A DNA stretch of 64,000 nucleotides, taken from contig DATEOC010000092.1 in assembly GCA_035274425.1 (NCBI GenBank), positions 3,562-67,561 on the forward strand, written 5' to 3'. Position 1 is the stretch's first letter; every line of letters begins with the position of its first letter. Origin of the DNA: Chloroflexia bacterium. GTDB taxonomy: Bacteria; Chloroflexota; Chloroflexia; QHBQ01; JADMIH01. The notes under the pieces are model-generated. The model ran no database searches. It was not told where the DNA came from and saw only the letters and a list, made by a program, of their open reading frames with translations. Positions 8,289-53,428 of this stretch are shown here, in pieces. Position numbers and translations under genes: made by a program.

Positions 8289-9671
8289 CTACCTGCTGCC
8301 GGCTATGACCAGGTCTTCTTGATTTGCGAGCGCGAGTAGTTTGATGAATATTGATCGCGCCTCATGAGGTAGAGCAGCCAAATTTGGATTGTCTTCTACC
8401 TCTGGGTGATCAGGCGCAAAATTATTCTGCTGCCAACTGTTCAGGCGCTCCTGATGTTCTAGGTAAGCACGCGCACGGCTTTCATCGCCGCGAGAGGCAG
8501 CCCGGGTGGCCAGATCAGCGAGTGCAGCCAGGGCTGTTGGGCTGTGAAGTTGGGTATCGGCCTGTGCGGCTCGACGGGTGTCCTCCCAATGATCCAATGT
8601 CATAAGGGTGAGTAGGGCAACGTGTAGCGGGCGAGCCATCTGCTCACTCTCAATCCACCTTCGCAATTCCTCCAGGTGTGCCGCTATTCCTAATTCGCCT
8701 CTGGCTACAGCAGTCCGATGTAAGCTAGCTACCCGGTCCCGGAATTTGTGGGCCAGGACTTCGGGCCATGTATCTATCAGCACAGCTAAAGCCTCTGGCG
8801 TTGGTACTTCAAGAAGTTGATAGAGCAACTCCATCTCACGTCGGGTGGTGGAATTGAGGGCCAAGCGTGCGGCTTGAATCATGCCGATCAGAAGCTGAAG
8901 TCCATCGGCGATGCTGTTTTGCCCCTGCTGCTGAGCACGTTCGGCGGAGGAGACTAGAATCGTGAGGATCTCATCGTCAAACTCATCAAGATGCTCACGG
9001 ACAAACGCTTCCCGATCAGATGCACCCGCGAGTCCAGTCAGCAGATGCTGAGTGCGCTCGAACAAGGGACGATCAAGTGATTGCTCCTCCTGAAGTAGAT
9101 TGCCTGCCGCTTGTGTGACCGTGACGTCGGGAGTTACGGGCGACGATGTGCCCAGCAACTGGTCATCTCCAAATGACAGGAGCGGCTTTCGCTGATCGGA
9201 ACCGAGCGCCCGTGCATGATCTGTCAGCGCCTGATCAAGCGCGACCTCTACCGTTAGGCCCTGACGGGTCAAGCGGAGAGCAGTACGCGCTAGATCGGCA
9301 TAAGACAGCAGGACACGCAGAGCTTGGGTCATAATCTCATCATTGACTTTCCCACTGCTAACGGGCACCAGGAGACGAGCACATAGTTCGCCGTCAATAG
9401 GGTCGTACGCCAAATTGACCTGCGGCAAATGCCAAGCTAGAATTGCTAATACCTCCTCCTCGCCGCCCAGTATTGTTTCAATATGTAGAACCTGCACTAG
9501 CACGGCGGTCTCGCCCTCCGCCTGCACAGCAACGTCTAGGTCTCCGCCAGGCGTGCTAATACCAGCAAGCAGCAGAACGTCACTTTCATCGTCGCGCTGA
9601 TAATCTAGGTCATGTAGATCAAGATACCGCACTAACTGATCCATGATACGAGACATGCCAGCCTCCCTCAT
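8289..9671 (-). CDS. YbjN-like N-terminal domain plus helical domain protein, translationally coupled to the TPR-CHAT gene at 5566-8286. Likely true start at 9656 (MSRIMDQ...).
   Basis: The N-terminus 'MDQLVRYLDLHDLDYQ...LAILAWHLPQVNLAYDPIDGELCARLL' aligns with residues 1-100 of the 961-4608 protein. A GGGAGG RBS lies 5 nt before the second ATG. The stop overlaps the downstream start by 4 bp. Confidence 0.7.
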   Translation of the reverse strand: MREAGMSRIMDQLVRYLDLHDLDYQRDDESDVLLLAGISTPGGDLDVAVQAEGETAVLVQVLHIETILGGEEEVLAILAWHLPQVNLAYDPIDGELCARLLVPVSSGKVNDEIMTQALRVLLSYADLARTALRLTRQGLTVEVALDQALTDHARALGSDQRKPLLSFGDDQLLGTSSPVTPDVTVTQAAGNLLQEEQSLDRPLFERTQHLLTGLAGASDREAFVREHLDEFDDEILTILVSSAERAQQQGQNSIADGLQLLIGMIQAARLALNSTTRREMELLYQLLEVPTPEALAVLIDTWPEVLAHKFRDRVASLHRTAVARGELGIAAHLEELRRWIESEQMARPLHVALLTLMTLDHWEDTRRAAQADTQLHSPTALAALADLATRAASRGDESRARAYLEHQERLNSWQQNNFAPDHPEVEDNPNLAALPHEARSIFIKLLALANQEDLVIAGSR

Positions 9672-10410: not shown

Positions 10411-12453
10411 TCATATCCGATCAACGTCCCAGAGCCAAGTGTTGCCCTGACTTCTGAAACTTCCTTTGTTCTCAGTGTTCACAGTACCGCCGAAGTTGTA
10501 GACCGCATGGTCGTGGTAGTCATATGTGTATGTAGTAATGACCTCTGATCCACTGCGCATGTCGACGATGCTGCTATTGTTGATGGTCGCAGTACCCAGA
10601 TACACATTGACCCCAACGCCTAATCCTGAGGCAACTGTACTATTGCGAATCATTAGAGATCCCCCATCCACGTACAAACTGGACCAGGTTTGGGAATAAT
10701 TGAGGGAACCACTAACTGCTGGATCTGAGTGCGGGATACTAGATGTCTGCCCTGCATACGTGACCACAGCGTTCTCCAGTAGATTACCCGTGCTGGTCGA
10801 AGCGAAGTACATACCTGACCAGTCCCCCGCAGCAGGCAAACTCATGCTGCTGTCATTATTGGTATCACCACCATGGGTATCGTCCTTCAGTGAGGTGAAG
10901 ATAATCTGATTAGATGCCGTGCCTTGCGCCAGCAAGGTGCCTTGCACATTCAATCGGGCAGGGGCTGAGAAGTGGGCCGTCGGGGCGAACTTCAGAATCT
11001 GGCCCGGCATCAAGGCGAGGGTTGTGCCCTTGTTTACTGTGACCCCATTCAGTATGTAGGGGATGTTGCTGTAAGGCCAGGTGGTATCTGCGGATATAGT
11101 TGCGTCTACGGCTATCCCGTTGATCCCATTGCCTGTGGCAAAGTTGTTTCCGCTGGCCGAAGAGAGTGAGTGTCCCGTCAGTTGTATTGCAGCGCCAGCG
11201 TTGCTGGTAAAAGTGTTGTTGGTGATAGTAGGGGGCTGTTCGTTTCTCACGGATACACCTGTAGCAGCGTTGCTGATGACCCTGCTTCCGGTGATGGAGA
11301 AAGCAGCAGTCGGGGCATCATCATTGTACGCAAATACTCCATGACCGTTGTAGCTAAAGGTAGCCGTACCGACCACTTCCGTGCCGGAGAGCATGTTGGA
11401 GATGGTGCTGTCAGTGATTGAGGCCGAGCCTTTGTATATGTTTACACCCACGCCCCGACCATCAGAGATAACGCTATTGGAGATGGTGATCGAAGATTCA
11501 TCTACGTACAAGCTCGACCAAGTGCGGTCGAGGCTGACATTGGTTCCACTAGCTGCGTAATCCAAGTGAGGCAAACTGGCGACCTGCCCAGCATAAGTCA
11601 CGATTACATGGTCGAGTGTGTTTCCGCTGCTGGTCGGGGCGAAGTAGATGCCTAACCAATCTCCAGCCGCAGGTGTAGATTGTCTTGATGTAAAGATCAC
11701 TTTGTTATTTGGTGAACCTTCCGTACGTAACGTACCGTTCACAATTAGCCCAGCATTGGATTCGAACTTCATCATTACCCCTGATCCGATAGTCAATGTC
11801 ACCCCGCTACTTACAGTCAAGTTGCAGGACACGACATATGGGCTCTCTGATAACGTGAGAGTGGTATTCTGTGCGATGGATCCGCAAAGCACTATCGACG
11901 TTACGGGCGTCGGGGGTGTAACCCGGACTACCGGCCCGGGGCAGTCTAGATCTGGTGGAGGGTTTGGTCCACTGCATGTATCGGACAATGGATATCCGAT
12001 GACAGCCTGAGTGGGCATCTCCGCAGGCGAGTGAGTAGCTAGCAGGGTGAATAGGAGCATAACGTAGCACAGGAAGCTGCCCAGTATCACCCGAAGTATG
12101 ACCAAGCCTGCCATAGGTCTCTTCTGGCGATGTGTAGGAACGCTGGAGGGATCCCTTGAATATGGCTGCTTCCACAACTGCCTGCTCGTTGAAAGAAACG
12201 TCGGCACAACCTGTGCCCTCAAGGTTGTTCGTTGTGTCGGGACGTTAGCGGCTATACTAGCGGCAACTCTTGCATCCAACCGAGCCATAATCTCTTCACT
12301 TGGCTCCGGCCAATAACCAAATCGGTGCTCTTGCACATAGTCTGCGACTTTCGCGAGACTGTGGTCCAAGCCTGGCGGCAATGGATGTTCTCCGCGCTTC
12401 AAGGCTTCACAATAGGTGTCGAGCAGGTCTGCTTCTTTGTTGTGGAACATCAT
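10411..12453 (-). CDS. Anti-sigma-factor-like membrane protein with a cytoplasmic N-domain, one TM helix and a large extracytoplasmic right-handed beta-helix domain.
   Basis: 680-aa ORF starting 1 nt after the stop of the ECF sigma gene. A hydrophobic segment 'LVILRVILGSFLCYVMLLFTLLA' follows about 110 aa in. It is followed by repeated G/S/T/N-rich beta-helix turns (NSVISDGRGVGVNIYKGSASITDSTISN...). Confidence 0.65.
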   Translation of the reverse strand: MMFHNKEADLLDTYCEALKRGEHPLPPGLDHSLAKVADYVQEHRFGYWPEPSEEIMARLDARVAASIAANVPTQRTTLRAQVVPTFLSTSRQLWKQPYSRDPSSVPTHRQKRPMAGLVILRVILGSFLCYVMLLFTLLATHSPAEMPTQAVIGYPLSDTCSGPNPPPDLDCPGPVVRVTPPTPVTSIVLCGSIAQNTTLTLSESPYVVSCNLTVSSGVTLTIGSGVMMKFESNAGLIVNGTLRTEGSPNNKVIFTSRQSTPAAGDWLGIYFAPTSSGNTLDHVIVTYAGQVASLPHLDYAASGTNVSLDRTWSSLYVDESSITISNSVISDGRGVGVNIYKGSASITDSTISNMLSGTEVVGTATFSYNGHGVFAYNDDAPTAAFSITGSRVISNAATGVSVRNEQPPTITNNTFTSNAGAAIQLTGHSLSSASGNNFATGNGINGIAVDATISADTTWPYSNIPYILNGVTVNKGTTLALMPGQILKFAPTAHFSAPARLNVQGTLLAQGTASNQIIFTSLKDDTHGGDTNNDSSMSLPAAGDWSGMYFASTSTGNLLENAVVTYAGQTSSIPHSDPAVSGSLNYSQTWSSLYVDGGSLMIRNSTVASGLGVGVNVYLGTATINNSSIVDMRSGSEVITTYTYDYHDHAVYNFGGTVNTENKGSFRSQGNTWLWDVDRI

Positions 12454-12454
12454 T

Positions 12455-13036
12455 CTATACCTCGATATCCAGCCACGTTCGTAGTTTTCCGTATGCCCGG
12501 TGGCGTCGGCTCGACACTGCCCGGGGATCTATCCCTAAGATATCGGCGATTTCCCCTCGAGTAAAACCCCGCCAGATTAGCAACATCACGGTACGCTCCT
12601 GAAAAGGGAGCCGGGCTATTAGCCGTGCGAGCTCAACTCGTCTTTCGTCAATTAATGCCTCATCCTCGGGACCTGGCTCGTTCGAGGCCATATTCTCTGC
12701 TACTTCATCGTCTAAGTAGCCTACATCTGTATGGCGACGCTTTCGAAGCTGACTGATACATGCCTGAGTCGCCAATCGATACATGAGCCCCTTATCAGGA
12801 AAATGTGTCCATTGGCCAGAGAACACCTTTATGAACGCGTCGTGTGTGACTTCCTCTGCTTCTCCCCAGTTCCCCATCATGCAGTAGCAGAACTTCATAA
12901 GTTGCGCACCATAAAGGTTATATATGAGATGAAACTCAGCCTCATTTAGACGTGTGGGCGCAGCCTCACCCTCTCGCTTGGCTCGTTCGGTGAACCTGCG
13001 GAAGATATCGCTGAATTCTAACGAGTCAAACCCCAA
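12455..13036 (-). CDS. ECF-family RNA polymerase sigma-70 factor.
   Basis: 193 aa. Region 2 reads 'THDAFIKVFSG...LYRLATQACISQLRKRR'. Region 4 HTH reads 'LPFQERTVMLLIWRGFTRGEIADILGIDPRAVSSRRHRAYGKLR'. Confidence 0.85.
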   Translation of the reverse strand: MGFDSLEFSDIFRRFTERAKREGEAAPTRLNEAEFHLIYNLYGAQLMKFCYCMMGNWGEAEEVTHDAFIKVFSGQWTHFPDKGLMYRLATQACISQLRKRRHTDVGYLDDEVAENMASNEPGPEDEALIDERRVELARLIARLPFQERTVMLLIWRGFTRGEIADILGIDPRAVSSRRHRAYGKLRTWLDIEV

Positions 13037-13774: not shown

Positions 13775-14690
13775 ATCTGTGGATCTGACCTGCTGAGATT
13801 GATCGTAATATCTCAAATGGAGCGTGTGGCTGAATGCATAAACGGCGGCTGTCACGCCGCTCGCGCTTCTGTTCCTATCTGTCATAGCCCTCGTGCCTGT
13901 CTTGGCTACCTCAGCTTTCACACATATCGTATCCATAACCAGCATAGCCCATCGATAAGACTCTGGTGCCCCGAACCTCTACGATATGCGCAAGGCACAC
14001 TCCCCTACAGTCTTGCTTCGCCTGGATACCTTCCCAGGTGAGCGCTCTCTGGTATGAACTTCCGATACTACGTTTGTTACCTTGCAGGACGGCGCCCGCG
14101 AAACTCTATCTAATACAGCTCAAACCGTGCGACGACATCCTCTTACGCCTCATGGGCGATACCGTGCTGCCGCTCTTCACCGGTTAGCACCGAGCGTGAA
14201 GCAGGCTTACATCCGGCCGCGTCTCGCAGCTCGCGATACGACGCGTCTGCCGCCGCCCGGCTCCTGAATCCCCCAGCCACGATCTGCCCTCGCTCAAAGA
14301 TGTAGAAGAGGCCTTGCCGCGGCGTCCGTCGGTTATTGCGCTCAACGTAGAGGTCGATGCAAGGGATGCCCCGACGATAGTAGCCGCTCACTGCTGCCCA
14401 CGCCTCCCCGTCCCTATCCCCACCCATATCCGCCTACGTGGAGATCTGCGAAGGCCTAGCCAGAGGGGTCAGCGCCGACGACTCCTCAGTCGAGTGATCA
14501 ACCTTGGCACATCGACTAATACTTGCCTCAGCACTATCAGTACTGGCGTCGGCTCTTTGCTCGTAGCCGACTTGAAGTCTATTGGGCAACCGCAGCCGTC
14601 CTTTCTGCGCAGGAGAGTGTACGTGATATACTGTTTCGGAAGCGGAACGAACAGGACGGCTACCAGGTGCCGCTAGAATGCTGAGGACAA

Positions 14691-17600
14691 ATGGCTCGTC
14701 GCGAACAATTGATCACGGGCATTATGGCAGTTGCGATTACAGCTGTCGGCGCAATTTCCTTGAATCCAGTTATAGCCGCAATCTGCCTGAATATTGGTAG
14801 CGGCTTGGCTACGACGCTGCTTCAAGAGCATATCAATGAGGTGTTCCCCCGAGTCTATACGCTATGGCTTAGGGACCCTGATATTCAGCGGGCTCTCAAA
14901 CGTGCATTCTCAAATGCCCTGAAACAGATAGAGAAGGACTGCATATCGCGCTTCTGCCGAAGTAATATAGACCCCAACAAGATTGTGATCCAGGCTGCGT
15001 TCAAGGACCTACGAAACCATGTGGATATCTTCCTACAGCAGACGACGGCACATGCGGCTCAGGAGTTGGTTGGTCAAGGGGGTGCATCAGACCGAGGCAG
15101 CCTCAAAGCTAAGCTTGACGCCTATCTTGATGAGTATCTTACCGGGCACGACGACGACCTGAAGAGGTTTGTGAGAGAGCGCCTAGTAGACCGGTTCACT
15201 CAAGCGTTTGTGAACGAACTGAAGAACGATGACAGAGCATGGCGTGCCACGCAGCTCCAAGCTCAGAAGGGTCTCCATGCTCAATTGGCCGATTTGAATA
15301 CGTCGTCCGGTCAAGAACTCCCCTTGCTGAGAGAACTGGTCGAGTGGAAGCGGAAGCTGGATAGCACTCCACCGGCGGAGCGTGATCCTCTGGGTCAGGA
15401 CACCCTCAATACGCTGGAAGACAAGCTGAAACAAGCCCTTGCAGAGCAGACCGACGTTCTCACGGAGACCATTCGTAACGCTGCAGACCAAACGGTCGCT
15501 CGTGTGGGCGAACTCCTTCAGCCGGGTTCGGGCACCTCACCTCAGCTTCTGGAGGGTTATCTTCGCGCTCATCGGACCTACTGCGATAACCTACCGTATG
15601 TTGGGCTGAGTTACAGTCTATCAGGCGCGGGTACCCAATCCATTGACGAACTCTATGTTCCGTTGAGCGTGCGCGGGCTCCACCGCCGCCAGCCAGCGAA
15701 CGATGACTCAGAGGCATCAGATCCTACCTCTCCTACCTCGCTTTACACCGATATCAGCGTGCCACAGGCCATCAGGAGCCTTGTAGGCAATATAGCACTG
15801 CCCCATCTGTTCATCACTGGCGATGCTGGAGCCGGTAAGTCGACCCTGCTTCGGTACGTCGCCAAACGGGTATGGGATGCTCCCGCAGAAGTTGGGTTCG
15901 ACAAACCGTACCTTCCCATGGTACTTCGTGCTAGATGGCTCGGCGCCGTGGAGGGCTTGCAGATAGAGGACAGATTGCGAGCGGCGCTAGACCGGGCAGG
16001 GGAGATAGCCCAGCTTGAGCCAATCCCGCAGGGGTTCTTTGCTGAATGGCCCAAGCAAGCAGATACCCGTTGGGTGCTCTTTCTCGATGGCCTGGATGAG
16101 GTTCCTGATCCTGCCAGGCATAGGTTCCTCCGATGGCTGAACTCACTAATAGACGTAGCTAAGGAGTCGATTGCGCACATTGTCATGACTTCAAGGCCAT
16201 CGACCAATCTGAGTGCAGAGCTAGAAGCCCGCTTTCAGCATTGTAAGGTCTTACCTTTCACGGCTCTTCAAGAGACAGACCTGGCTCGTAAGCTATTGGG
16301 AGACCAGTACCATGAATTCGTCACCCAGCTCGACAGACTAGAAATCACGAGCCAGGAGCCGAGAACAATAGGTAGCACCAGGCCGCTCATCAACGGCGCG
16401 CCTCTCCTTATCACAGTTGCAGCGAACGTCTATAGCAAGAGTGGTCAGCTCCCGATACGCCGCACGGAACTCTACCGTCAGTTTATCGATACCTGGCTGT
16501 CCGAGGCACGCGAGCACGGTTTAGCAACTGAGATCGAGGAGTCACTCGTTAGGCTATCCAGCAAGATACTTGAACGCTTGGCTTTCTCCACGTCGGATCA
16601 GCCCCAGTTTGACACCGTCCTGACGCTGTCGCCCATAGTCGCCGCCTACCTGAGACAAACGCTAAACTTATCTGAAGATCTGGCGGAGGTTACTGCCGAA
16701 CAAGTGATCCAGGTGCTGGGTAGGCGGAGCGGCGTTCTCTTCTGCAAGGATGGCATATGCGAATGGATACATCCTACGTTTCGCGAGTACCTGGCAGCGC
16801 GCGTGCTGCACAAGCAGCTAAACGAGTCCCATTCAGATTACGAGCGGATACTGGATGGTCGGCCATTCACGAGCCAATGGGACGGCGCAGTAGAAATGCT
16901 CAGGGAGCTCCTGGCTGAACCCCAGGAGCTCGATAGCTGGCTGCAGTCTCAAAGATTAGCAGTTATCGCCGATGGTAAGCAGCGCATCGAGCGTAGGCAA
17001 AGATGTCTCAGGACGATAGGCATCAATGGCTACAAGGATGCGAGTATAGTTTCGGCTCTGCAACGATGCTTCGAGACCATACCCCCCGCAGACATAGAAC
17101 TCCTCAGCAACGCACTTTGGGCAGCCCTTCGGCTTCGAGAGCTCCAGTACGGCGAGCATGCCGCCGTTGCGCTTGCTTCTGATGATTGGGAAACGGTAGA
17201 TCGCGCGGCCTCATACCTGAGCCACTCGCCTTCGCCCGGCGCCCTATCTACCTTGCGCGCTGCTCTACATAGGTGGCAGTTCGTAGAGGAAGAGGACAGC
17301 CGTACTCTCTTCTTATTGCCGAGTTTGCTTACGGCACTGGCCAAGCTCAATTTGGCGGAGGCGCATGAGATCATCATCCACTCCTTAGAGACCGCGCTAA
17401 GAGGAAGTGGAAACCTGTCTGAAGTAGAGGCATTGTGGGCAGCCGACTATCTTAACCTGGCTGCGGCGCACGGCTTAGTGCTGGAGACGCTTCTCCTTAG
17501 CTTGGAGGATGGAGGACTATCTGATGGTAAGGTGTTTCAGGCTCTAACCAGAATAGAGAGGACATGGCGGCCGGAGCTCTTGCGAGCCCTCGTTGATGCG

Positions 17601-19283
17601 AGGCGGCGTCTGGACAGCAAGGGAAGAAGCGTCGCTCAACGGTTAGTAGAGCCCCTTGTGGAGAAGCTTGCGCCAGCCAAACTCGAGATTCGAATGGATG
17701 CCCATAATCAGATTCCAATACTATATACGCTGGCTGTCTGCCAGGCACCCGATTTTGTTCCGCAGTTGGGGCGGCTCCTGCACAATAACGTCGATTGGAT
17801 GAAGAGAAAAATAGCGGAGGCATTCTGGGTGTTGGGAGACCCTGGCGCTGAGGCGTTTCTCCTGGATGAAGTGGAGGAGGCTAGCAAAAGGAATTGGGAA
17901 GGTACCCGCGACACTATTCATGACATCATTCGTGCTTTGGGCACCTGCGCCACTTCCACGAGCGCAGAGGCTATCATGCGCTATCTCTATTCGTCTCCCG
18001 AAATAGAGCTCCATATTCCCGAAGAGGCAATTGTGCCTCTACTCACTCGGGGTGTCCTTGACGCGAACCGCCTACAGCAACTTGTGAGGGATAACACTGC
18101 TTCCGAGGAGGGCCGCAATGCGGCTCTCATAGCAATCGGGTACTTTTCCCCGAAGGAGCAGGCGCAGCTCTGCCGAGAAATCCTGGCCAAGCATGACCGT
18201 TCGGATGTGTTCCATTTCGCGCTCACGGTGGCTGGCTGGACGAGAGATAGAAGTCTCGGCGACGTACTGCATCACGCATTGAGAACTACTACCGACAGCC
18301 GTGACGCCGAGCGCGCTGCCAGAAGCTTGGCGCTCATCAACTACCAGCCTGCTGTTCATGATATCGAACGCGCATTGGGCAAGTTCACCGATAGCAGGGA
18401 CGTAAGAGGATTCGCCTTTGCGCTGTCTCGCTTCAAGAGGAAGTCGTCGCTACCCGTTTTATTGGATGTTCTTGCCAGGAACAGATGGGATCGCGAAACG
18501 GCTTTGCTCGAAGCGCTGGGCGTGTACTGGCCGCAACAGCAGGTCCGAGAAACCTACGCACAGACGCTAAATTCGCCGTCAGCGGCCGGTGTCGTCTTCG
18601 CGCTTTCAACTCGTGACCCCAATTTCCTTTTGCGACGTTCGCTAGATACACTGGAGAACCGTCCGGATGAGGCAGATGTTGATCTAAGGAAAGCTCTTGC
18701 CGTCCACATTGTTAAAATTGCAAAGCATCACGACACCGACGTTGCGATGCTTGTCGAGCTTTTGGCCTGGCTAATCTGCGACCGCGAACTGGACGTCCGC
18801 GAGAAGATGAACCTGCAACTCAGGCGGTTAGCTCCGGAGTTGCTCAACCTCATTTATGCATGGCTCCATGCCAACACCGATGAGTGGACAAGGGCTTGCA
18901 TAGGTTACAGCCTGGGCTTCTGGGATGCTCAACCAGACCGCATGAGCCCCTTCTTGGGTGATGGCAGCCCCCTTGTTCGCAAACTTGCCGAAGAGGCCAC
19001 GCTCATGCGTGAAAAACACACAGCCCTTCGGGGGCTTGTGAAGCAGTTCAACTCTGTAAGGAAAATGCCCAGACTCTCCTCGTACTTGTGCCTCAAGGCG
19101 CACGCAGATATGCGTACTGTACGCGAGTTGGCGGAGACGCGCTCAAGCGTGCCGTTTCTTGACTTGTACGTTGCGCAGCTTTTGGAGGACGTGCAAGACC
19201 GTCTTAAGAAGGAGCGCAAGGAAAGAGAGGAGAACGAAAGCAAATTGATGCCTGGAAATCACCAAGCTTTGGATGACGCTTAG
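14691..19283 (+). CDS. bNACHT-type STAND NTPase (1530 aa) with a hydrophobic N-terminal segment and C-terminal HEAT/PBS-lyase-like repeats.
   Basis: Walker A 'FITGDAGAGKSTLLRYVA' and Walker B 'VLFLDGLDEV' are NACHT-like. The first ~45 aa are strongly hydrophobic (LITGIMAVAITAVGAISLNPVIAAICLNIGSGLATTLL). The C-terminal 600 aa carry repeated helical HEAT-like units. Confidence 0.8.
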   Translation: MARREQLITGIMAVAITAVGAISLNPVIAAICLNIGSGLATTLLQEHINEVFPRVYTLWLRDPDIQRALKRAFSNALKQIEKDCISRFCRSNIDPNKIVIQAAFKDLRNHVDIFLQQTTAHAAQELVGQGGASDRGSLKAKLDAYLDEYLTGHDDDLKRFVRERLVDRFTQAFVNELKNDDRAWRATQLQAQKGLHAQLADLNTSSGQELPLLRELVEWKRKLDSTPPAERDPLGQDTLNTLEDKLKQALAEQTDVLTETIRNAADQTVARVGELLQPGSGTSPQLLEGYLRAHRTYCDNLPYVGLSYSLSGAGTQSIDELYVPLSVRGLHRRQPANDDSEASDPTSPTSLYTDISVPQAIRSLVGNIALPHLFITGDAGAGKSTLLRYVAKRVWDAPAEVGFDKPYLPMVLRARWLGAVEGLQIEDRLRAALDRAGEIAQLEPIPQGFFAEWPKQADTRWVLFLDGLDEVPDPARHRFLRWLNSLIDVAKESIAHIVMTSRPSTNLSAELEARFQHCKVLPFTALQETDLARKLLGDQYHEFVTQLDRLEITSQEPRTIGSTRPLINGAPLLITVAANVYSKSGQLPIRRTELYRQFIDTWLSEAREHGLATEIEESLVRLSSKILERLAFSTSDQPQFDTVLTLSPIVAAYLRQTLNLSEDLAEVTAEQVIQVLGRRSGVLFCKDGICEWIHPTFREYLAARVLHKQLNESHSDYERILDGRPFTSQWDGAVEMLRELLAEPQELDSWLQSQRLAVIADGKQRIERRQRCLRTIGINGYKDASIVSALQRCFETIPPADIELLSNALWAALRLRELQYGEHAAVALASDDWETVDRAASYLSHSPSPGALSTLRAALHRWQFVEEEDSRTLFLLPSLLTALAKLNLAEAHEIIIHSLETALRGSGNLSEVEALWAADYLNLAAAHGLVLETLLLSLEDGGLSDGKVFQALTRIERTWRPELLRALVDARRRLDSKGRSVAQRLVEPLVEKLAPAKLEIRMDAHNQIPILYTLAVCQAPDFVPQLGRLLHNNVDWMKRKIAEAFWVLGDPGAEAFLLDEVEEASKRNWEGTRDTIHDIIRALGTCATSTSAEAIMRYLYSSPEIELHIPEEAIVPLLTRGVLDANRLQQLVRDNTASEEGRNAALIAIGYFSPKEQAQLCREILAKHDRSDVFHFALTVAGWTRDRSLGDVLHHALRTTTDSRDAERAARSLALINYQPAVHDIERALGKFTDSRDVRGFAFALSRFKRKSSLPVLLDVLARNRWDRETALLEALGVYWPQQQVRETYAQTLNSPSAAGVVFALSTRDPNFLLRRSLDTLENRPDEADVDLRKALAVHIVKIAKHHDTDVAMLVELLAWLICDRELDVREKMNLQLRRLAPELLNLIYAWLHANTDEWTRACIGYSLGFWDAQPDRMSPFLGDGSPLVRKLAEEATLMREKHTALRGLVKQFNSVRKMPRLSSYLCLKAHADMRTVRELAETRSSVPFLDLYVAQLLEDVQDRLKKERKEREENESKLMPGNHQALDDA

Positions 19284-19388
19284 CCCATACGAGGGCAAGA
19301 AGGTGGTGATCCTTTATCTTCTACAACCCTGTAAGGCGACTGATAGGAGGAAACCGTCGGTCACCCAGTTCCTTGAATTCGCTACATC

Positions 19389-22300
19389 ATGCTGCAACAA
19401 CAATTCGTAACTGAACGTGATCGAGACGCCTGGGCTACAATAGCGGGATTTGTATACCAGGTGGACCTCACCATCCTTCGGTGGCTCGAACTCGGTGACG
19501 GCCAGTATCTAGAGCTTGAGTGCGGCGAGGATATCGACCTAATCACGGCGGATCTGCATGGCGGTGCTCATTCAGGCCAGTTAGGACAGCGCCTACTGGA
19601 GCAGGTGAAGCGTTATCAAAGTCCAATCAGCCTTCGGTCGCGGGTAGCGCTTGAAGCGCTCGCTTCTGCTGTTGAGCACCTGGCGAATAACCCTGGCTTG
19701 GACTTGGCATTCCAGTTTACCACCACAGCCGCCATCAGTCGAGAACAACCCTCTCCCCTGCCAGACCGCATTCCGGCCATAACGGCGTGGCATGAAGTGC
19801 GAGCAGGAACACTCACCTCAGACCTTCAAGGACGCATACTGCAAGGAATCCGCGCCATCTTAACTGGTGCTTCCCGTCCGGCCAACCTGAACGAAAATAC
19901 CTGGCAGCGGTTCAAAACCTTTGCAGCTGAGGCATCTCAGGAGGACTTGCTTAGTTTCGTCAAGCGCTTCGAGTGGAGCACAGGTGCCGCAGACCCGGAA
20001 GAGGTCATGCTGCAGGTTCGGGCAGTGCTAATCGAACGAGGTGCAGCAAAGGACACAACTGAAGCTTGGTCCCTATATCAGAGACTTTTCCATCACGTGT
20101 TCAGGGTATTGACCAGCCCAGACCTAAAGCGCCTCAGCTCCGCTGATCTATCAGAGCAGCTCACGCAACGCACGTTGACTGCCGATGAGCTTGCACTGGT
20201 GGAGGGCGTTCACTCAATACTCGCGGACCTAACGAGCCGCGTCCAGAGCTTGGAGCGGGTTCAGGAGGAACAGGTCCGTAGTATCGAGGCCATTCAGAGT
20301 CAAGTCGCTGGCCTCGCTGAGAGATACGGCATCTATCCTGCCCAAGTTCGGCAGTTACCCAGGTCATTTAGAGAGCTACCCCCCATCCCGCCTGCTGTCA
20401 GTCGGAGGAGCAAAACAGTTGCTAACCTGCTTGACACGATTCAGCAGTTCACATGGACTGCGCTGCATGGAAGCATCGGGTCGGGCAAGACCCTATTGGC
20501 AGCGTTATCGGCATACGAGCGGGGCCAGTGGGAAGCGTGGATAAAGCTGTCGACCAACCAGCTGGAGCAAGCAAGTATTGACTTGGACGAGGTTTGCTAT
20601 GAGTTGATAGGTGACTTTTCACCGGGGCCGTGGCAAGACCTATACCGTAAAGCCTGCACAGAGGTGGGCACCGGGAAACTGGTTATCATCCATGACCTGC
20701 CAAGACTCAACGGCAATGACCCTCTTACGGAACGGCTTGTGCTACTCACATTGACTGCAGCCAAAGCTGGACTAAAGCTCCTCACAACAAGCCCTTTTAG
20801 ACCGCCTAATCGCGTGAGAACAGCTCTCAGAGGGACCACCTTAAGAATTGTTGCGGTACCCGCATTCACTGACGAAGAGGTACTGGAAGTTCTTGAGCGA
20901 CACGGGGCGCCGCGAGAAGTCCTCAACGACAAGTTCATCTCCGCTATGTCAAGCCTGACTGACAGACACCCTCAGCGACTGGCGTCCCTCGCCCAGTACC
21001 TTGAGCAACGGCGATGGCAGATTACCGACGAGGTGGTAGAAGGGCTGCTCCGCAGCGAGTATAGCCAAGAGCTCGACAGAGAAACGACACACGCACTGAT
21101 TTCCAAGATAGATGATGTTGACAGCCGCGAGTTGCTTTACCGTCTCGGACTGAGTAAGCGTTCCTTTTCACTCGAAGACGTCAGGGCTATAGCCAGCTTG
21201 GAGCGAGTGATAGATAGGCCCACTGAACGCTTGGATGCTCTCGTCGGTGTGTGGGTACAGCCTGAAACGGATGTCCTTATGTCCGTATCGCCCTTGATTA
21301 CTGCGCTCGATGGCCGGGACTTAACTGCTAATACATACAGGGCGTGTCATAAAACGTTTGGTCGGCGAATAATGGCGAAAGGCACCATTACAGCGTCTCA
21401 GCTTATTGATGCTCTAACTCACTTCAACGAGGCTCAGGAATACGATCAGGCCGCCCTGACTCTAAGCGTAGGCCTTACCGAATTGAGCAGGTTGGAGCCT
21501 ACTGCTCCTGATGCAGGGCTATCAGCTGTGTGGGCGAATACCCCACTCCCTGAGCAGATGAACCTTGGGTTGCGCATCTACGCCCGGCTGCGACAGATAC
21601 TCGCCAGAACACAGAGGGGACTGCAGACCGCGCACGCCGTCCGTGACCTGGACGCCCTTATCGACCGGGCTGGTGAAGAGGAGATATGGGCTCTCTCTGC
21701 AGTAATGGGATTGACCCCAATTGCGGAAACCAGCCCCATTCCGGCAGCTAACCTATACAAGTATCTTCTACGTGTTGTCAGGCACTTTGATACTGCCATG
21801 CTACCAAACGGCACGCCGTTACGTGATGTGGTTCCGATCCGACCCGAACTGATCATCTGGTGGCATGTCGTAAACATAAGAACGGTTGATGACATGTTTG
21901 CTTGGCTGAACACGTTCGAGCACTTTAGCGACGAGGAGCGAGGGCGTGTATTGGCAGATGACTTGGCCGTAGAGGGTTGCCTATGGGTGGCGAGCCGGGT
22001 TTGGCTGACGGAATGCGAAAAGCCAGCAGAAAAGCAGGAGTGGGCGCCAATACTTGCTGCACTTAAGGAACTAGAGCAGCGAGCGCGTGGGCTTGGCGTA
22101 GAGTTATTGTGGGCTTCGGCAGTTCACTCGCAGATTATCATACTTGCGGAGAGTTGTCACGACCTCCCAGCCGCGAAGAAACAAGCCGAAGAGGCGTTAG
22201 CTGAAGCTTCAGTAGACCCGCGAGTTCAGTTTCTGATCAGAGAAGCTATTGGCAAGCAAGGTACCTTGCCGGAGGCAGAAGCCATAGAATGGCTGCGGTC

Positions 22301-23702
22301 GGCACTACAACAAGAGACTTCAGCCTACCCTGCGGATCGCATGCGTGCGTTCCTAAAGCTTAGTCGCCTAATCGCACCCACTGACTTGGCGAGTGCGCTT
22401 AGCTATAGTGAACAGGCTGTAGAGGTAGCGAATAACTCCGATGAAGTGGCCGACACCGAGGTTGTCAAGGCTCTGGGGGAGCTCACCATAGCTCGGTACC
22501 TTTCGGACGAACTAGCAAGTACCTATGATGACTGGGAGTTAGCAGGCGAGAAGCTGTTGGGAGCGAAGGAACACACGGAAGACTGGAAGAGCACTTTCGT
22601 GATTTACGGTCACTGCGCTGGCTATTTTGCCCGATTCGCAATGACAGGTCATCCACCTGAAGCGATAGCCTCTGGAGAGCCATACGTAGCGCCTCAGCTT
22701 GGGATGTTTACCGGCCATGTGCCAGAACGTGCCCAGTATTACGATACCAAGACCAGCATACTCCATATCTCTTACCTTATGGCCAACCTGGCGATGTACG
22801 CAGGTGCAGTCGGTAAAGTAGAGCGCGTAATCGCCTGGTCTGTGCAAGGGTTTGACTTGGCGCGTGCTGCCGGCGAAACGCTGGCCGTATCACAGATGGG
22901 CTTTGACGTAGTACCAGCACTCCTTATCAACAACCGATTCGGTGAGGCCCTGGACACTGCACTGGCGACTGGCATAGGTGGGGTGGCAGTCAGGCTAGAT
23001 TACAGGAAGGACACGACATCAGTGAGAACCAGAATCGATGTCGATGAGGTGCTGGGGCCAAAGCCAAATGAGAACTGGGTAAATGCAGAACAGATAGCGG
23101 GTGAACTCGGCGTACTGCCCGCAGCATTCAGACTTGGGTCTATCGCCTTGAAGGACGCTGGGGAAGCACGCGATTGCGCTCAGGAAATAGCATCTCTGTG
23201 CCGACAGGTTGGTATCGAGGCAGCTGAACCTGCCTTCTGGAATACAGCGGCAGAGATTTTCGAGGAGTCTTTCGTAAGGCCAGTTGGGGCCAAGCGGCTG
23301 ATTGAGCGCCCATCTGCTACAGTCATTAAGGACCGGGTGTTGCACGCTGTTGCCTATATAGGAGCGTCATTACAGACTGATTGCATACCTTCTATGGCGC
23401 TGGAAGCGCACCTCGCCATTGCCTCCGCTGTGGAACTGCTCAGAAGCGCAGATCTGGTACACAGGCTCATCGTTACACCTTTCTTCAAGGAATACTGGCA
23501 ACGCTCGTTCGCACGCTCAAGGTTCCGCTTCAGAGCCCCAATAGTTGTCCAGCGCGGCCTCGAAGCCGCGGAGCAGGTGGGACTTGACGATCAGCCTCAA
23601 GCTGTACTGCGCGCCGTAGCTACTGGCCTAGATGTGCGAATCCCTACCGACCACTTTAACTGGTTGCACAAGAAAGTAGATTCAGGCGTCCCCAGGCCGT
23701 GA
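19389..23702 (+). CDS. STAND/AAA-like P-loop NTPase (1437 aa) with a possible N-terminal PD-(D/E)xK/Cap4-like nuclease domain and a long C-terminal helical sensor region. Avs-like architecture.
   Basis: Walker A 'GSIGSGKTLLAALSAY' and Walker B 'LVIIHDLPRL'. The N-terminus 'GFVYQVDLTILRWLELGDGQYLELECGEDIDLITAD...LLEQVKRY' resembles a D...(E/Q)xK nuclease core. The gene lies 105 bp downstream of the NACHT gene on the same strand. Confidence 0.7.
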   Translation: MLQQQFVTERDRDAWATIAGFVYQVDLTILRWLELGDGQYLELECGEDIDLITADLHGGAHSGQLGQRLLEQVKRYQSPISLRSRVALEALASAVEHLANNPGLDLAFQFTTTAAISREQPSPLPDRIPAITAWHEVRAGTLTSDLQGRILQGIRAILTGASRPANLNENTWQRFKTFAAEASQEDLLSFVKRFEWSTGAADPEEVMLQVRAVLIERGAAKDTTEAWSLYQRLFHHVFRVLTSPDLKRLSSADLSEQLTQRTLTADELALVEGVHSILADLTSRVQSLERVQEEQVRSIEAIQSQVAGLAERYGIYPAQVRQLPRSFRELPPIPPAVSRRSKTVANLLDTIQQFTWTALHGSIGSGKTLLAALSAYERGQWEAWIKLSTNQLEQASIDLDEVCYELIGDFSPGPWQDLYRKACTEVGTGKLVIIHDLPRLNGNDPLTERLVLLTLTAAKAGLKLLTTSPFRPPNRVRTALRGTTLRIVAVPAFTDEEVLEVLERHGAPREVLNDKFISAMSSLTDRHPQRLASLAQYLEQRRWQITDEVVEGLLRSEYSQELDRETTHALISKIDDVDSRELLYRLGLSKRSFSLEDVRAIASLERVIDRPTERLDALVGVWVQPETDVLMSVSPLITALDGRDLTANTYRACHKTFGRRIMAKGTITASQLIDALTHFNEAQEYDQAALTLSVGLTELSRLEPTAPDAGLSAVWANTPLPEQMNLGLRIYARLRQILARTQRGLQTAHAVRDLDALIDRAGEEEIWALSAVMGLTPIAETSPIPAANLYKYLLRVVRHFDTAMLPNGTPLRDVVPIRPELIIWWHVVNIRTVDDMFAWLNTFEHFSDEERGRVLADDLAVEGCLWVASRVWLTECEKPAEKQEWAPILAALKELEQRARGLGVELLWASAVHSQIIILAESCHDLPAAKKQAEEALAEASVDPRVQFLIREAIGKQGTLPEAEAIEWLRSALQQETSAYPADRMRAFLKLSRLIAPTDLASALSYSEQAVEVANNSDEVADTEVVKALGELTIARYLSDELASTYDDWELAGEKLLGAKEHTEDWKSTFVIYGHCAGYFARFAMTGHPPEAIASGEPYVAPQLGMFTGHVPERAQYYDTKTSILHISYLMANLAMYAGAVGKVERVIAWSVQGFDLARAAGETLAVSQMGFDVVPALLINNRFGEALDTALATGIGGVAVRLDYRKDTTSVRTRIDVDEVLGPKPNENWVNAEQIAGELGVLPAAFRLGSIALKDAGEARDCAQEIASLCRQVGIEAAEPAFWNTAAEIFEESFVRPVGAKRLIERPSATVIKDRVLHAVAYIGASLQTDCIPSMALEAHLAIASAVELLRSADLVHRLIVTPFFKEYWQRSFARSRFRFRAPIVVQRGLEAAEQVGLDDQPQAVLRAVATGLDVRIPTDHFNWLHKKVDSGVPRP

Positions 23703-24212: not shown

Positions 24213-25124
24213 ATGTCTATTGCATTCCAGACCCCCTACGGCACATCCTTCCACGGCCCCGCAGAGGTGATCCTTACCTCGCCTCAAGCTGAACAGTACC
24301 AAAAGCAGGTACGCCTTATTTTCACCTCACCACCCTTTCCTTTGAACAGGAAGAAGAAGTACGGTAATTTGAACGGGCAAGCATACATCGACTGGCTAGT
24401 GAGCTTTGCTCCCCTCTTCAAAGACCTTCTCATGGCGGATGGCTCTATAGTCATAGAGATGGGGAATTCATGGGAGCCCGGCCGGCCAATCATGTCTACA
24501 CTTGCCTTGCGCGCGCTCCTCGCATTACAGGAACATGGTCAATTCCACCTATGCCAGCAGTTCATCTGGCATAATTCGGCACGCCTCCCAAGTCCAGCGC
24601 AGTGGGTCAATGTTGAACGCATCCGCCTCAAAGACGCGTTCACATACTTATGGTGGCTTTCGCCCACCGAGCGTCCTAAGGCGGATAATCGCCGTGTGCT
24701 CAAAGAATACAGCGACTCCATGCAGAAACTGTTAGTCTCTGGGCGCTATAATGCCGGAAAGAGACCATCTGAGCATCACATTGGCCAAGCTTCCTTTCTC
24801 AACGATAACAACGGCGCTATTCCCTCAAACGTGATTACGCTTGCCAACACCCAGGCATCCAGTGATTACCTGAACTACTGCCGGGAGAACGGCCTCCAAC
24901 CGCACCCAGCCCGTATGCCGCCTGAACTAGCGAGCTTTTTCATTCGGTTCTTGACCGACCAAAACGATTTGGTGTTAGATCCGTTCGCTGGTAGCAATAC
25001 AACGGGGTCAGTAGCCGAAAGTCTCCAACGCCGATGGATTGCCGTTGAAGCGAGCAATGAATATATAGCGGGCTCCAAAGGACGCTTCAATCTCGATCCT
25101 GCCATATCCCAAAGCACCAGCTGA
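24213..25124 (+). CDS. Beta-class amino DNA methyltransferase (N4-cytosine or N6-adenine), with motif IV before motif I.
   Basis: Motif IV 'FTSPPF' sits near the N-terminus. Motif I 'VLDPFAGSNTTG' sits near the C-terminus. SPPF is typical of N4mC/N6mA MTases. Confidence 0.85.
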   Translation: MSIAFQTPYGTSFHGPAEVILTSPQAEQYQKQVRLIFTSPPFPLNRKKKYGNLNGQAYIDWLVSFAPLFKDLLMADGSIVIEMGNSWEPGRPIMSTLALRALLALQEHGQFHLCQQFIWHNSARLPSPAQWVNVERIRLKDAFTYLWWLSPTERPKADNRRVLKEYSDSMQKLLVSGRYNAGKRPSEHHIGQASFLNDNNGAIPSNVITLANTQASSDYLNYCRENGLQPHPARMPPELASFFIRFLTDQNDLVLDPFAGSNTTGSVAESLQRRWIAVEASNEYIAGSKGRFNLDPAISQSTS

Positions 25125-25166
25125 TCTCGCTAGGACTCAAAGCCGCAGTGTTCTGTTGGCCCTACC

Positions 25167-25222
25167 TCTAGACTAAGGTACCATGGGACTAAGGACGATG
25201 TACCATTCATCCTTAGGTCTAG
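25167..25222. promoter_or_regulatory. Stem-loop downstream of the MTase gene, with an ~11-bp stem (ctagactaagg / ccttaggtctag) and an internal ggtaccatgg palindrome.
   Basis: The inverted repeat is seen directly in the sequence. No U-tract follows, so it may be a structural or regulatory element rather than a classic terminator. Confidence 0.3.
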
Positions 25223-25614
25223 TATCGCTTGGGAACATGATTGGGTGGAGCAATCCCACGGCGTCATACCTGTTATGGACAAGGGGTATTATAGAATAGG
25301 CTAATTTGGCCTATTGACTTAACGCATACCAATAGTGTAGCATTACCCATAGTTGGAGTTGTACCTCTTTTCATTATCGCCACTATATTCCTGCGTTCCT
25401 GTGCTGACATAGACAGAACGCACCTTTGTTGCTGCCCTGGAAAAGGCGGCATTAACGTCTGGAACGGCACGACTGATCAATAGCCTAGTCAGTGTTGTGG
25501 TGGTCAGTTTTTGATCATTGTCGTTTTCTAACGCAGCAAATCCTGCTACCTCATGGACCAGATGGACCAGATAGGACAAGGACATTCAAGGAGCCTTCAG
25601 GAGATAAATAGTAG

Positions 25615-27333
25615 ATGGCGCGCATGTATCCCCAGAACTTACCAGGCAGCGTCGAAAGCAAAGCGGAGGAGATCCTTTACCAGGAACTTCAAGCACAACT
25701 CCCCGATGGTTACACTGTACTCTACAGCGTTAAATGGCTCATGCGCGATCGAAAACGGCATGACAACGATGGCGAGATTGATTTTCTCATAATCCACCCT
25801 GATCTAGGTGTGCTCGTCTTGGAAGTCAAGGGGGGCCGCATACGTGTAGAGGGCCCAAGCGGTCACTGGTATACGATAGACAAGCACGACCAAGAGCATC
25901 TTATCAAAAACCCGTTCGATCAGGCTACGAAGAACCTGCATGCTCTGAGGGACAAGCTCGATGAAGCTCCAGCCACTCAGCCCTATTCGTATCGCATGCA
26001 GCATGCCGTAGCCTTCCCCAATGTGATCCTGGGGCAAACTAACATCGGTCTTTACGGCGATCGCGAGCTGATCATCGACTCCACAGATATGCCTCGGCTG
26101 GAAATGGCGATCCGCCGTATTATGGGGACCCCAAACAAGCAGCCCGTGTTGAGCAGCTTGGCCCTACGTGCCTTCGTCAATACCCTGCAACCTACGATGG
26201 AGATCAGCCGCATCGGTATCGGCACACACGTGCTCGAATCGGAAAGACAAATCGCTATCCTCACCGAGAACCAGTTCCGCATCCTCGACTATCTAGCCCT
26301 GCATCCACAGGCCCTGATATCGGGCTGCGCAGGCTCAGGTAAGACGATGCTCGCAATGGAAAAGGCCCGCCGTCTTGCCAACGAAGGCTTCACGGTACTG
26401 TTTACCTGCTTCAACAGAAACCTCGCACAGTGGGTGCGCTCACGCTTCCAGAGCGATCCTAACACCATTAGCGAGCGCATTTACGTAAATCACTACCATG
26501 GACTGGTGATCGAATTCTGCAAGAAGTCCGGTATAGCTCTCCAGCAAGAGATCGAAGCTCTGGACCCGCAGGCACTATCTGAATATCTCAACGATACGCT
26601 GCCAGAGAAGATGCATGAAGCCAATACAAAGCTCAGGTTGCGCTTCGACGCCATCGTAGCTGATGAGGGGCAAGACTTCGCTGAAATGTGGTGGGTAACA
26701 TTGCTAGACCTGCTCAAGGACAGAGAGCAGGGTGTCTTCTACATCTTCTATGACCCCAATCAACGTATTTATGGGCGAGACTTGTCTCTCCCCTTCACCG
26801 ATGCGCCTTTCACCCTCAATACTAATTGCCGTAACACCGCGACAATACACAACGAGGTACAGCGCTTCTACCAGGGTACTCCACAGCCCTTATCAGGTGG
26901 GCCAGCCGGCATCAAACCAGCAATTATCCCTATACTGCAAACAGGGGAGAGAGAAGCGTTGCGCAAGGCTTTTACCCACCTCTTCACCGAGGAGAAAGTC
27001 CCACCCCGTAATGTAGTCGTACTCACTCCACGAGGGCTACGTACTAGTGAGTTCAAGGAGGGGACCACGGTCGGCACTTACACTCTAACTTGGGGCGAGG
27101 CTGGACCTGGCCAGGTGCCGATACGCTCGATCTACAGTTATAAGGGCCTCGAAAGCCCCGTCGTCATCCTCGCTGAACTCGACAAGATCGAGTCTCAGCA
27201 GCAGGACTATCTCATGTATGTGGCTCTATCTCGCCCTAGGAACCATCTCATAGTGCTGGGCCGCTTGCCTCAACCTCTCGCTGAGCCCGTGACGATCAGA
27301 CCTGGGGATCGATATGCATATGGAGAACTCTAA
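25615..27333 (+). CDS. NERD (nuclease-related domain) fused to a UvrD/PcrA-like SF1 helicase.
   Basis: N-terminal NERD signature 'GEIDFLIIHPDLGVLVLEVKGG'. Helicase Walker A 'ISGCAGSGKTMLAMEKA' and motif II 'IVADEGQDF'. The stop lies 2 nt before the start of the next gene. Confidence 0.85.
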   Translation: MARMYPQNLPGSVESKAEEILYQELQAQLPDGYTVLYSVKWLMRDRKRHDNDGEIDFLIIHPDLGVLVLEVKGGRIRVEGPSGHWYTIDKHDQEHLIKNPFDQATKNLHALRDKLDEAPATQPYSYRMQHAVAFPNVILGQTNIGLYGDRELIIDSTDMPRLEMAIRRIMGTPNKQPVLSSLALRAFVNTLQPTMEISRIGIGTHVLESERQIAILTENQFRILDYLALHPQALISGCAGSGKTMLAMEKARRLANEGFTVLFTCFNRNLAQWVRSRFQSDPNTISERIYVNHYHGLVIEFCKKSGIALQQEIEALDPQALSEYLNDTLPEKMHEANTKLRLRFDAIVADEGQDFAEMWWVTLLDLLKDREQGVFYIFYDPNQRIYGRDLSLPFTDAPFTLNTNCRNTATIHNEVQRFYQGTPQPLSGGPAGIKPAIIPILQTGEREALRKAFTHLFTEEKVPPRNVVVLTPRGLRTSEFKEGTTVGTYTLTWGEAGPGQVPIRSIYSYKGLESPVVILAELDKIESQQQDYLMYVALSRPRNHLIVLGRLPQPLAEPVTIRPGDRYAYGEL

Positions 27334-27335
27334 AG

Positions 27336-30239: not shown

Positions 30240-30297
30240 CATTTCTAACCTTTAGCAAGGTTATTCTGGAAGAAGTAATTCCCGAAGGATATTTCAT

Positions 30298-34119: not shown

Positions 34120-34172
34120 GGCAATTCGGCAAAGACAGTAGATGCCACACCTACTTTCTAGGAGTTCCTATT

Positions 34173-53395: not shown

Positions 53396-53428
53396 CCTTC
53401 GGTAACGCCAGGTAGCCAGGAAGTATTC

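Follow-up and report, generated by a model that had tools for sequence, protein, structure and literature searches.

Two adjacent NLR-like STAND proteins in a Chloroflexia defence island: an Avs-like protein with a predicted nuclease domain and a NACHT protein with a candidate membrane-inserting domain

A stretch of 64,000 nucleotides from a Chloroflexia bacterium (contig DATEOC010000092.1; hereafter the window, whose positions are used throughout) contains two very large genes on the forward strand, P1 (14691..19283; 1530 residues) and P2 (19389..23702; 1437 residues), which are separated by a spacer of 105 bp (19284..19388). Both are read from an ATG; the call for P1 relies on the list of open reading frames, Pfam and the ENA/Logan gene prediction, and that for P2 on the same list and on homologues. 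In the public record P1 is named 'NACHT domain-containing protein' (NCBI HKP54938.1) and P2 'hypothetical protein' (HKP54939.1). Our analysis indicates that the two are probably separate immune receptors of the NLR-like (STAND) kind, each self-sufficient, and that they lie side by side as a result of defence-island clustering and not of mutual need, P2 being Avs-like and P1 acting through a domain with a hydrophobic hairpin. A first-pass annotation made from the sequence alone had described two giant genes of these lengths, on one strand and 105 bp apart, each encoding its own Walker A and Walker B motifs. The list of open reading frames and the motifs GDAGAGKS and FLDGLDE in P1 and GSIGSGKT and LVIIHDLP in P2 bear this out.

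Two receptors without a conserved association

The same annotation had left it undecided whether the genes encode independent sensors or a cooperating pair; our comparisons favour independence and give the pair no support. In a sensor-helper pair, as known for paired plant NLRs, one protein would sense the phage and the other would execute the response, by a nuclease or a membrane domain. The close spacing on one strand is what such a pair would show, and neither a terminator-like nor a promoter-like site was found inside the spacer in a scan of positions 13-25 kb. Because the 105-bp spacer lacks a terminator, P1 and P2 may be co-transcribed, which counts against independence but is uninformative: across the scanned region such sites occur at chance level. 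The proteins themselves speak otherwise, as each already holds an effector, an NTPase switch and a sensor. So does the distribution of their relatives. With one genome scanned for each species, 145 P2 relatives were confirmed, and 80 of their loci were fetched; a tblastn search with P1 found no P1-like gene in any of the 80, in flanks of up to 10 kb. The P2 family has no conserved neighbour of any other kind in these loci, the largest neighbour family being present in 6 of the 80, and from its gene neighbourhoods it is judged to be a stand-alone single-gene system. At the locus of P0111, the sole homologue that matches P1 over nearly its full length, no P2-like gene is present, and a serine recombinase lies downstream. 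Since the adjacency is not conserved and each protein has all three parts, we regard P1 and P2 as independent receptors and a cooperating pair as quite improbable.

One observation could be taken as a sign of interaction. Four natural chimeras of ~1630 residues (P0097, P0099-P0101; P0097 is encoded at L085:8001-12923) combine a P2-type nuclease, a different STAND NTPase and a P1-type sensor. Their nuclease is 38-41% identical to residues 6-345 of P2, and their C-termini align to the P1 sensor (residues 756-1518) over ~760-800 residues at 25-29% identity (E = 4e-65 to 4e-49). At face value, the fusion of these two parts resembles Rosetta-stone evidence that P1 and P2 work together. The chimeras, however, have an NTPase of their own and are complete STAND receptors, which points to domain shuffling rather than to interaction; with the adjacency of P1 and P2 also unconserved, we rejected the fusions as evidence for a P1-P2 interaction.

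P2 has an Avs-like architecture with a predicted Cap4/DUF4297-type nuclease

P2 is organized as a single-chain STAND protein with four parts, all encoded on the forward strand. Profiles, the structural model and the family alignment place a Cap4/DUF4297-type PD-(D/E)xK nuclease domain at the N-terminus (19389..20168, residues 1-260), with a core at residues 15-112 followed by a helical subdomain. In the AlphaFold model, a single long linker helix (20181..20327, residues 265-313) leads from the nuclease to the STAND NTPase (20409..21308, residues 341-640), which is delimited by AlphaFold, Foldseek and motifs and consists of a nucleotide-binding domain (NBD), a helical domain (HD) and a winged-helix domain (WHD). 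The remaining ~800 residues form an α-helical, TPR-like sensor (21309..23699, residues 641-1437), assigned from family conservation and a profile. This sensor region is conserved over its full length in the family, and profile positions ~913-1050 match TPR proteins.

A Pfam scan of P2 returned nothing significant. Among the PADLOC models, LmuA matches residues 11-298 (E = 4.9e-12) and DUF4297 residues 10-55 (6.3e-7), and the NCBIfam model DUF4297_antiphage (NF042945) is matched at 2.3e-6, under its full-length cut-off. A profile of the P2 family matches the DUF4297 protein of HerA-DUF4297 (PDB 8xav) at residues 9-49 of P2 (E = 5e-5), the two having the motif IRG(F/Y)xYQVD...ExxED(I/V)D in common, and the precomputed Pfam hits of P0089, one of the full-length P2 homologues, include PF14130. 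In an alignment of 38 homologues of 23-40% identity, E44, G46, E47, D48, I49, D50, Q72 and K74 are identical in all 38. We regard E44, E47, D48, D50, Q72 and K74 as putative catalytic residues. R340, just upstream of the NTPase domain, and G366 and K367 are invariant as well.

The model of P2 (residues 1-720, calculated with 15 homologues; pLDDT 83) shows an αβββαβ core built from helix 15-33, strands 39-44, 48-54 and 65-74, helix 85-100 and strand 105-112; its second strand carries D48/D50 and its third Q72-x-K74. Beyond the core follow the helical subdomain, the long helix of residues 265-313, a P-loop domain, a helical domain, a winged helix and the first helical repeats. Profile matches, restriction-endonuclease core and acidic...(E/Q)xK site together characterize the P2 N-terminus as a predicted nuclease of the Cap4/DUF4297 PD-(D/E)xK type. 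The D..(E/Q)xK-like segment that the first-pass annotation had pointed out is thus located at D48/D50 and Q72-V-K74.

In a Foldseek search of the PDB with this model, Avs3 bound to terminase ranked first (8dgc_A; E = 1.8e-11 over 829 aligned columns), ahead of Apaf-1, MalT (8bob), CED-4 and HerA-DUF4297; the family profile also has weak matches to Apaf-1 and Sr35. The Walker A motif is GSIGSGKT (residues 361-368) and the Walker B motif LVIIHDLP (residues 431-438). At the first Walker B position P2 has His435 (20691-20696 together with Asp436), where the family has Asp in 27, Asn in 6, Glu in 4 and His in 1 of the 38 members. The following Asp436 is kept in 37 of 38.

In its architecture P2 resembles Avs3 (Gao et al. 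2022, structure 8dgc) and Avs7 (Lee et al. 2026, PMC13581612), with the same order of Cap4/DUF4297 nuclease, STAND NTPase (NBD-HD-WHD) and large helical/TPR sensor in one chain of ~1400 residues, encoded by a single gene without a conserved partner. It differs in the single-helix linker of ~50 residues between nuclease and NTPase, in the family's Walker B sequence, (D/N/E/H)-D-L-P, and in a sensor that falls into no named class. Several results weigh against an Avs-like reading. The Foldseek TM-scores are low (0.23), which we attribute to a different arrangement of the domains; P2 has no match at E ≤ 1 to the PADLOC models of Avs1-5 and Dsr; the family profile retrieved no Avs3 or Avs4 chain from the PDB sequences; and His435 might alter nucleotide handling. 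The earlier description of P2 as Avs-like with a Cap4/DUF4297-type nuclease is right for the architecture, as the LmuA and DUF4297 matches, the core fold and the best structural match all suggest, and the likeness appears architectural and structural; membership of a named Avs family is not supported. Assignment to Avs7 in particular (Cap4, STAND and TPR in 1523 residues) found no support, as P2 matches neither Dsr1, which serves as a proxy for the Avs7 sensor, nor another of these PADLOC models. Lee et al. 2026 (PMC13581612) distinguish 589 STAND clades, at least 90 defence sensor families and 684 sensor clusters, and the P2 family may be one of these defence sensor families.

The P2 N-terminus is also related to HerA-DUF4297, LmuA of Lamassu and Cap4 of CBASS through the DUF4297 motif and the LmuA model. 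In those systems the nuclease is switched by the HerA ATPase, the SMC-like LmuB or a cyclic nucleotide, whereas P2 carries it in one chain with a STAND NTPase and a sensor. By analogy with Avs proteins, the ~800-residue C-terminal sensor of P2 would bind a phage protein. Binding would relieve autoinhibition and allow the ATP-bound NTPase to oligomerize; the oligomer would gather the N-terminal PD-(D/E)xK domains into an active DNase, which may degrade DNA and so abort the infection. A mechanism of this kind, with sensor binding, NTPase oligomerization and nuclease assembly, is established for Avs3 and Avs4 (structures 8dgc and 8dgf) and for Avs7 (PMC13581612).

About 90 proteins of ~1400 residues align to P2 over its full length, and the hosts of P2 relatives include cyanobacteria, Acidobacteriota, Planctomycetota, Bacteroidota, Myxococcota, Gemmatimonadota and Firmicutes. 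One full-length homologue (36% identity) is encoded on the 46-kb plasmid p6912-1 of the cyanobacterium Chlorogloeopsis fritschii PCC 6912 (L054:10001-14203), which fits horizontal mobility of the family. A segment ~40% identical to the N-terminal ~300 residues is also found, without the rest of P2, in other STAND proteins that have NACHT, WD40, TPR or HEAT parts. Because these copies head other STAND scaffolds, the P2 nuclease domain can be regarded as a mobile effector module.

In the P2 homologues of two further loci (L057:10001-12235 and L076:10001-12235), 11 and 18 stop codons interrupt the first 745 codons when these are translated in the frame set by the start of the match; these copies may be frameshifted or decayed, or may reflect assembly errors.

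The similarity of the P2 NTPase fold to MalT (8bob) raises the question of whether P1 and P2 are housekeeping signal-transduction ATPases, regulators of the MalT or AfsR type with no part in immunity, the more so as, according to Lee et al. 2026 (PMC13581612), STAND clades change back and forth between defence and other roles. A Pfam scan found no DNA-binding output domain in P1 or P2. The nuclease active site of P2 is invariant, and P2 homologues are spread patchily over many phyla, one of them on a cyanobacterial plasmid, as is typical of mobile defence genes. Both genes moreover are flanked by CHAT proteins on one side and a DISARM-like system on the other, and TIR and RES proteins, an integrase and TnpB belong to the same island. 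We consider a housekeeping role highly improbable.

P1 is a NACHT protein with a HEAT-type sensor

Behind an N-terminal domain discussed below, P1 comprises a pre-NACHT helical region, a NACHT NTPase module and a helical/winged-helix extension (15465..16967, residues 259-759, assigned from Pfam, motifs and the alignment of P0111-P0116), and a C-terminal helical-repeat sensor of the HEAT type (16956..19244, residues 756-1518, from the HEAT_2 match, P0111 and the chimera alignments), all on the forward strand. The Pfam NACHT profile PF05729 matches residues 373-537 with 44.6 bits against a cut-off of 26.7 (E = 1.7e-11), covering profile positions 3-165 of 167. Walker A is GDAGAGKS (residues 377-384). 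The Walker B segment FLDGLDE (residues 464-470) includes DGLDE (466-470), which fits the signature D[GAS]hDE that directly follows the Walker B aspartate and sets NACHT apart from other STAND proteins (Kibby et al., preprint 10.1101/2022.07.19.500537). HEAT_2 is matched at residues 1191-1276 (E = 1.9e-10). On this profile and motif evidence P1 is a genuine NACHT protein with a HEAT-type sensor, as the first-pass annotation had proposed for both features. Of its NACHT-or-Avs distinction, the NACHT half stood for P1, which exceeds the Pfam gathering score; for P2 the Avs half did not translate into a PADLOC Avs or Dsr match.

A set of 5.8 billion proteins contains a single near-full-length homologue of P1, P0111, which is 31% identical from P1 residue 259 to the end and has an N-terminus of its own of 68 residues. 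Five further proteins, P0112-P0116, match the NOD region only (P1 residues 259 to ~790) and align from their residue ~70; PF19954, a family called EAD10 in a neighbouring gene table, is among the precomputed Pfam hits of most of them. As P0097 and P0099-P0101 combine the same type of sensor with a P2-type nuclease, the alignments indicate that the P1-type sensor is one with swappable outputs, being joined to at least three different N-terminal outputs. For Avs sensors, too, a single sensor type has been reported with varied N-terminal outputs.

Like bNACHT proteins, for which 25 NACHT clades are distinguished, P1 joins an output domain at its N-terminus to a NACHT module bearing the D[GAS]hDE signature and ends in a HEAT sensor; Kibby et al. 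(preprint 10.1101/2022.07.19.500537) count HEAT with the 'antigen receptor-type' sensor repeats. P1 differs from bNACHT proteins in the N-terminal domain, which is not among the enzymatic and adaptor domains of Kibby et al. that can be checked in Pfam. In PADLOC, P1 matched no named bNACHT family; its matches were mad8 (5.7e-4, residues 371-394, in the Walker A region) and a chance match to a Type I specificity subunit.

The N-terminal domain of P1 is a candidate membrane-inserting effector

The N-terminal domain of P1 (14691..15464, residues 1-258) is defined by a search of representative sequences, an alignment and an AlphaFold model, and its boundary at residues 258/259 was set where the NOD relatives begin to align. 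Residues 6-45 (14706..14825), assigned from hydropathy and alignment, form a putative membrane-inserting element. They include no charged residue, reach the highest hydropathy of the protein (Kyte-Doolittle maximum of 2.05 in a 19-residue window) and are rich in Gly, Ala and Ile, and we read them as a hairpin of two helices of ~18 residues flanking a turn at Asn25-Pro26. The strongly hydrophobic N-terminus reported by the first-pass annotation is therefore real, and it is shared by the family: an uncharged stretch of 24-45 residues occupies the same place in 20 of 21 other aligned members, and in the remaining one an Asp shortens it to 15 residues. The family alignment begins with a short polar segment, followed by the Gly/Ala-rich uncharged stretch with its (L/T)(N/G)(P/Q) turn.

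Further along, the 22-member alignment shows the helix motifs LNxDLQxALxRAF, YLxGHDxQLVxFV, FxEELKxD..RAWRAxQ and W..RL..P..ER.PTG, with near-invariant residues limited to F173, L177, A183, W184, R185, Q188 and L239, and no motif of a catalytic type was seen among the conserved residues. The 'NHD' and 'GHD' motifs had led us to consider an HD-like phosphohydrolase; this was rejected, as the His and Asp are unconserved and P1 has DPD at the first motif.

A HMMER search with residues 1-330 against 1.84 billion representative sequences gave 80 matches at E ≤ 1e-3, 21 of them at E ≤ 1e-10. With the shorter NCBI version of P1 itself set aside, the alignments mostly begin at residues 2-30 of the two partners; in five cases they begin inside the query, and the target is shifted by ~30-70 residues. 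In a Pfam scan of 34 relatives, the domain is accompanied by NB-ARC in 8, NACHT in 7, AAA_16 in 12 and nSTAND1 in 4, with TPR or WD40 sensors alongside. No family in Pfam, NCBIfam or PADLOC covers the domain, and our literature searches found no published description of it. Judging from these alignments, it always occupies the N-terminal, effector position.

The start codon of P1 matters here. NCBI HKP54938.1 begins at the GTG of codon 111 and yields a protein of 1420 residues, 110 shorter, which lacks the hairpin (window 14691-15020 is lost), and the ENA/Logan call gives 1530 residues. Because the ~80 relatives align from near the N-terminus of both partners, the hydrophobic end belongs to the conserved domain and the ATG at 14691 is favoured; it is probably the better start, and the GTG start is probably wrong. 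As the public start deletes the very element of interest, automated surveys would miss the hairpin.

The ~900 bp 5' of P1 (13775-14690) contain weak open reading frames only, and no regulatory element was identified there. They include a 94-codon frame on the reverse strand (14143-14427), called as a gene by ENA and without a Pfam match, and a 120-codon frame on the forward strand with a TTG start (14314-14676).

The AlphaFold model of the N-terminal domain, calculated from 22 sequences, is all-helical (pLDDT 73), with ~90 over residues 55-200. Of the two N-terminal domains, then, structure prediction returned a nuclease fold for P2, and for P1 a helical fold that matches none in the PDB. The most economical reading of the P1 domain, to which we give slightly less than an even chance and which is drawn from analogy, is a membrane-inserting execution domain that is released on oligomerization. 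P1 would then follow the same sensor-switch-effector logic as P2, with a NACHT switch, a HEAT-type sensor and, as output, a non-enzymatic helical domain of ~258 residues. Oligomerization would expose and cluster the conserved 40-residue hydrophobic hairpin, which may insert into the cytoplasmic membrane and permeabilize it. In this respect P1 would resemble plant CC-NLR resistosomes, fungal HeLo domains and bacterial Bell/Bab domains.

More tentatively, the first ~258 residues may represent an undescribed family of non-enzymatic cell-death domains under the control of NLRs (NB-ARC, NACHT and nSTAND1 receptors), in which the helical bundle hides the hairpin and for which a Cap4-type nuclease can stand in on a sensor of the same type. 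Such a family would be a bacterial counterpart, in direct fusion, of the plant CC-resistosome, fungal HeLo and Bell/Bab executioners.

Some of our data do not sit easily with a membrane-inserting output. The hairpin is predicted with low confidence (pLDDT < 50 over residues 1-44), and it could be a plain membrane anchor. A Foldseek search of the PDB with the domain gave no match (best E = 0.26, TM-score < 0.2), HeLo, MLKL and CC folds included. The domain is also found on short forms of 300-490 residues without an NTPase, fused to Clp_N, HEAT, TPR or DUF7910. One of these, P0138 (432 residues, L082:6001-7299), is 32% identical to P1 residues 3-261 and lies among dnaX, ybaB, Band_7/NfeD and metH, a housekeeping neighbourhood that is not obviously defensive; it shares one ENA sample (ERZ27257050) with the contig of the window.

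These observations lead to the main alternative, that the domain is not a killer but a membrane anchor or a homotypic adaptor, which would place the NACHT sensor at the membrane or recruit a separate effector, the output then lying elsewhere. The short fusion proteins and the setting of P0138 speak for this, as does the confidently modelled soluble helical core. So do the nearest NACHT relatives of P1, which carry a short N-terminus of ~70 residues at the same position, in most of them the adaptor EAD10. On the other side, the extreme N-terminus, where the domain is invariably found, is the effector position in bacterial NACHT proteins (Kibby et al., preprint 10.1101/2022.07.19.500537); no gene adjoining P1 carries the same domain, and P1 has no other candidate effector. 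The richness of the hairpin in small residues and its low-confidence prediction suit an element that is exposed under certain conditions no less than they suit a fixed anchor. We consider an anchor or adaptor role unlikely.

If the domain is an execution domain, its closest functional counterparts would be Bell/Bab, HeLo, plant CC and MLKL, which are four-helix-bundle execution domains (Dyrka et al., preprint 10.1101/2020.01.06.895854; Ibarlosa et al., preprint 10.1101/2024.11.07.622273). Like them, the P1 domain is all-α and non-enzymatic, has a hydrophobic extreme N-terminus and stands upstream of an NLR NTPase; like Bell/Bab, it occurs mainly in bacteria rich in NLR-like proteins. However, it is ~258 residues long as against ~100 in Bell, presents a two-segment hairpin of 40 residues and not one helix, and is fused directly to NACHT and not coupled through an amyloid motif. 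P1 has no match to the Pfam families HeLo, RPW8 and Rx_N, and a profile search of the PDB sequences with the domain gave no real match. Its size, its two-segment hairpin and the lack of a fold or profile match speak against membership of the domain in these families, and we take the resemblance to them as functional analogy, not homology.

The surroundings are a defence island

P1 and P2 are embedded in a defence island. Upstream lie two large proteins with a C-terminal CHAT (caspase-like) domain, of 1215 residues (961-4608, forward strand) and 906 residues (5566-8286, reverse strand), whose long N-terminal regions have no Pfam or PADLOC match. They are followed on the reverse strand by an open reading frame next to the second CHAT gene (8289-9671), likewise without an assignment, a β-helix protein (10411-12453) and a divergent ECF sigma factor (12455-13036).

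Directly downstream of P2, a DISARM-like set (24213-36143) comprises a Type II N6/N4 methyltransferase (24213-25124), a NERD-UvrD helicase (25615-27333; best PADLOC match 'RTasNERD-Hel', 9e-69), a DrmE_C protein (27336-30239), DrmA (30298-34119; 4e-132) and DrmB (34173-36143; 1.5e-32), the NERD-helicase being a non-standard part of DISARM. Beyond it, on the reverse strand, are a GIY-YIG_2 protein overlapping a PDDEXK_4 protein with a weak PADLOC match to PDC-S26 (36292-37945) and a tyrosine integrase (39417-40400). A third STAND protein of 1268 residues (40800-44606, forward strand) combines nSTAND_NTPase5 with many TPRs. The remainder of the window encodes a TIR_2-domain protein (49691-50473), an IS605 OrfB/TnpB gene (51300-52571, reverse strand), a RES-domain toxin preceded by a 150-residue frame that is possibly its antitoxin (52943-54157) and a DUF4238 protein (54965-55984). 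No tRNA gene is present in the window.

Implications

Bacteria are now seen to rely mainly on single-chain STAND proteins as pattern-recognition receptors, and any new family of sensors can point to the phage protein that it detects. P2 is a further Avs-like Cap4-STAND-TPR protein of a known type and adds a widespread, unnamed family whose trigger could be sought by existing phage-gene screens. In P1, a NACHT-HEAT receptor, the modestly novel part of the locus is the N-terminal domain, which none of the searched libraries contains. P1 is the more instructive of the two, as the family of its N-terminal domain is missing from Pfam, NCBIfam and PADLOC and yet takes the effector place on many bacterial NLR-like proteins. 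P1 and P0097, in which the same sensor is joined to a candidate membrane domain or to a nuclease, form a natural test of effector swapping. If the P1 domain does permeabilize membranes, it would extend the parallel between the cell-death outputs of bacterial NLR-like proteins and those of plant and fungal NLRs.

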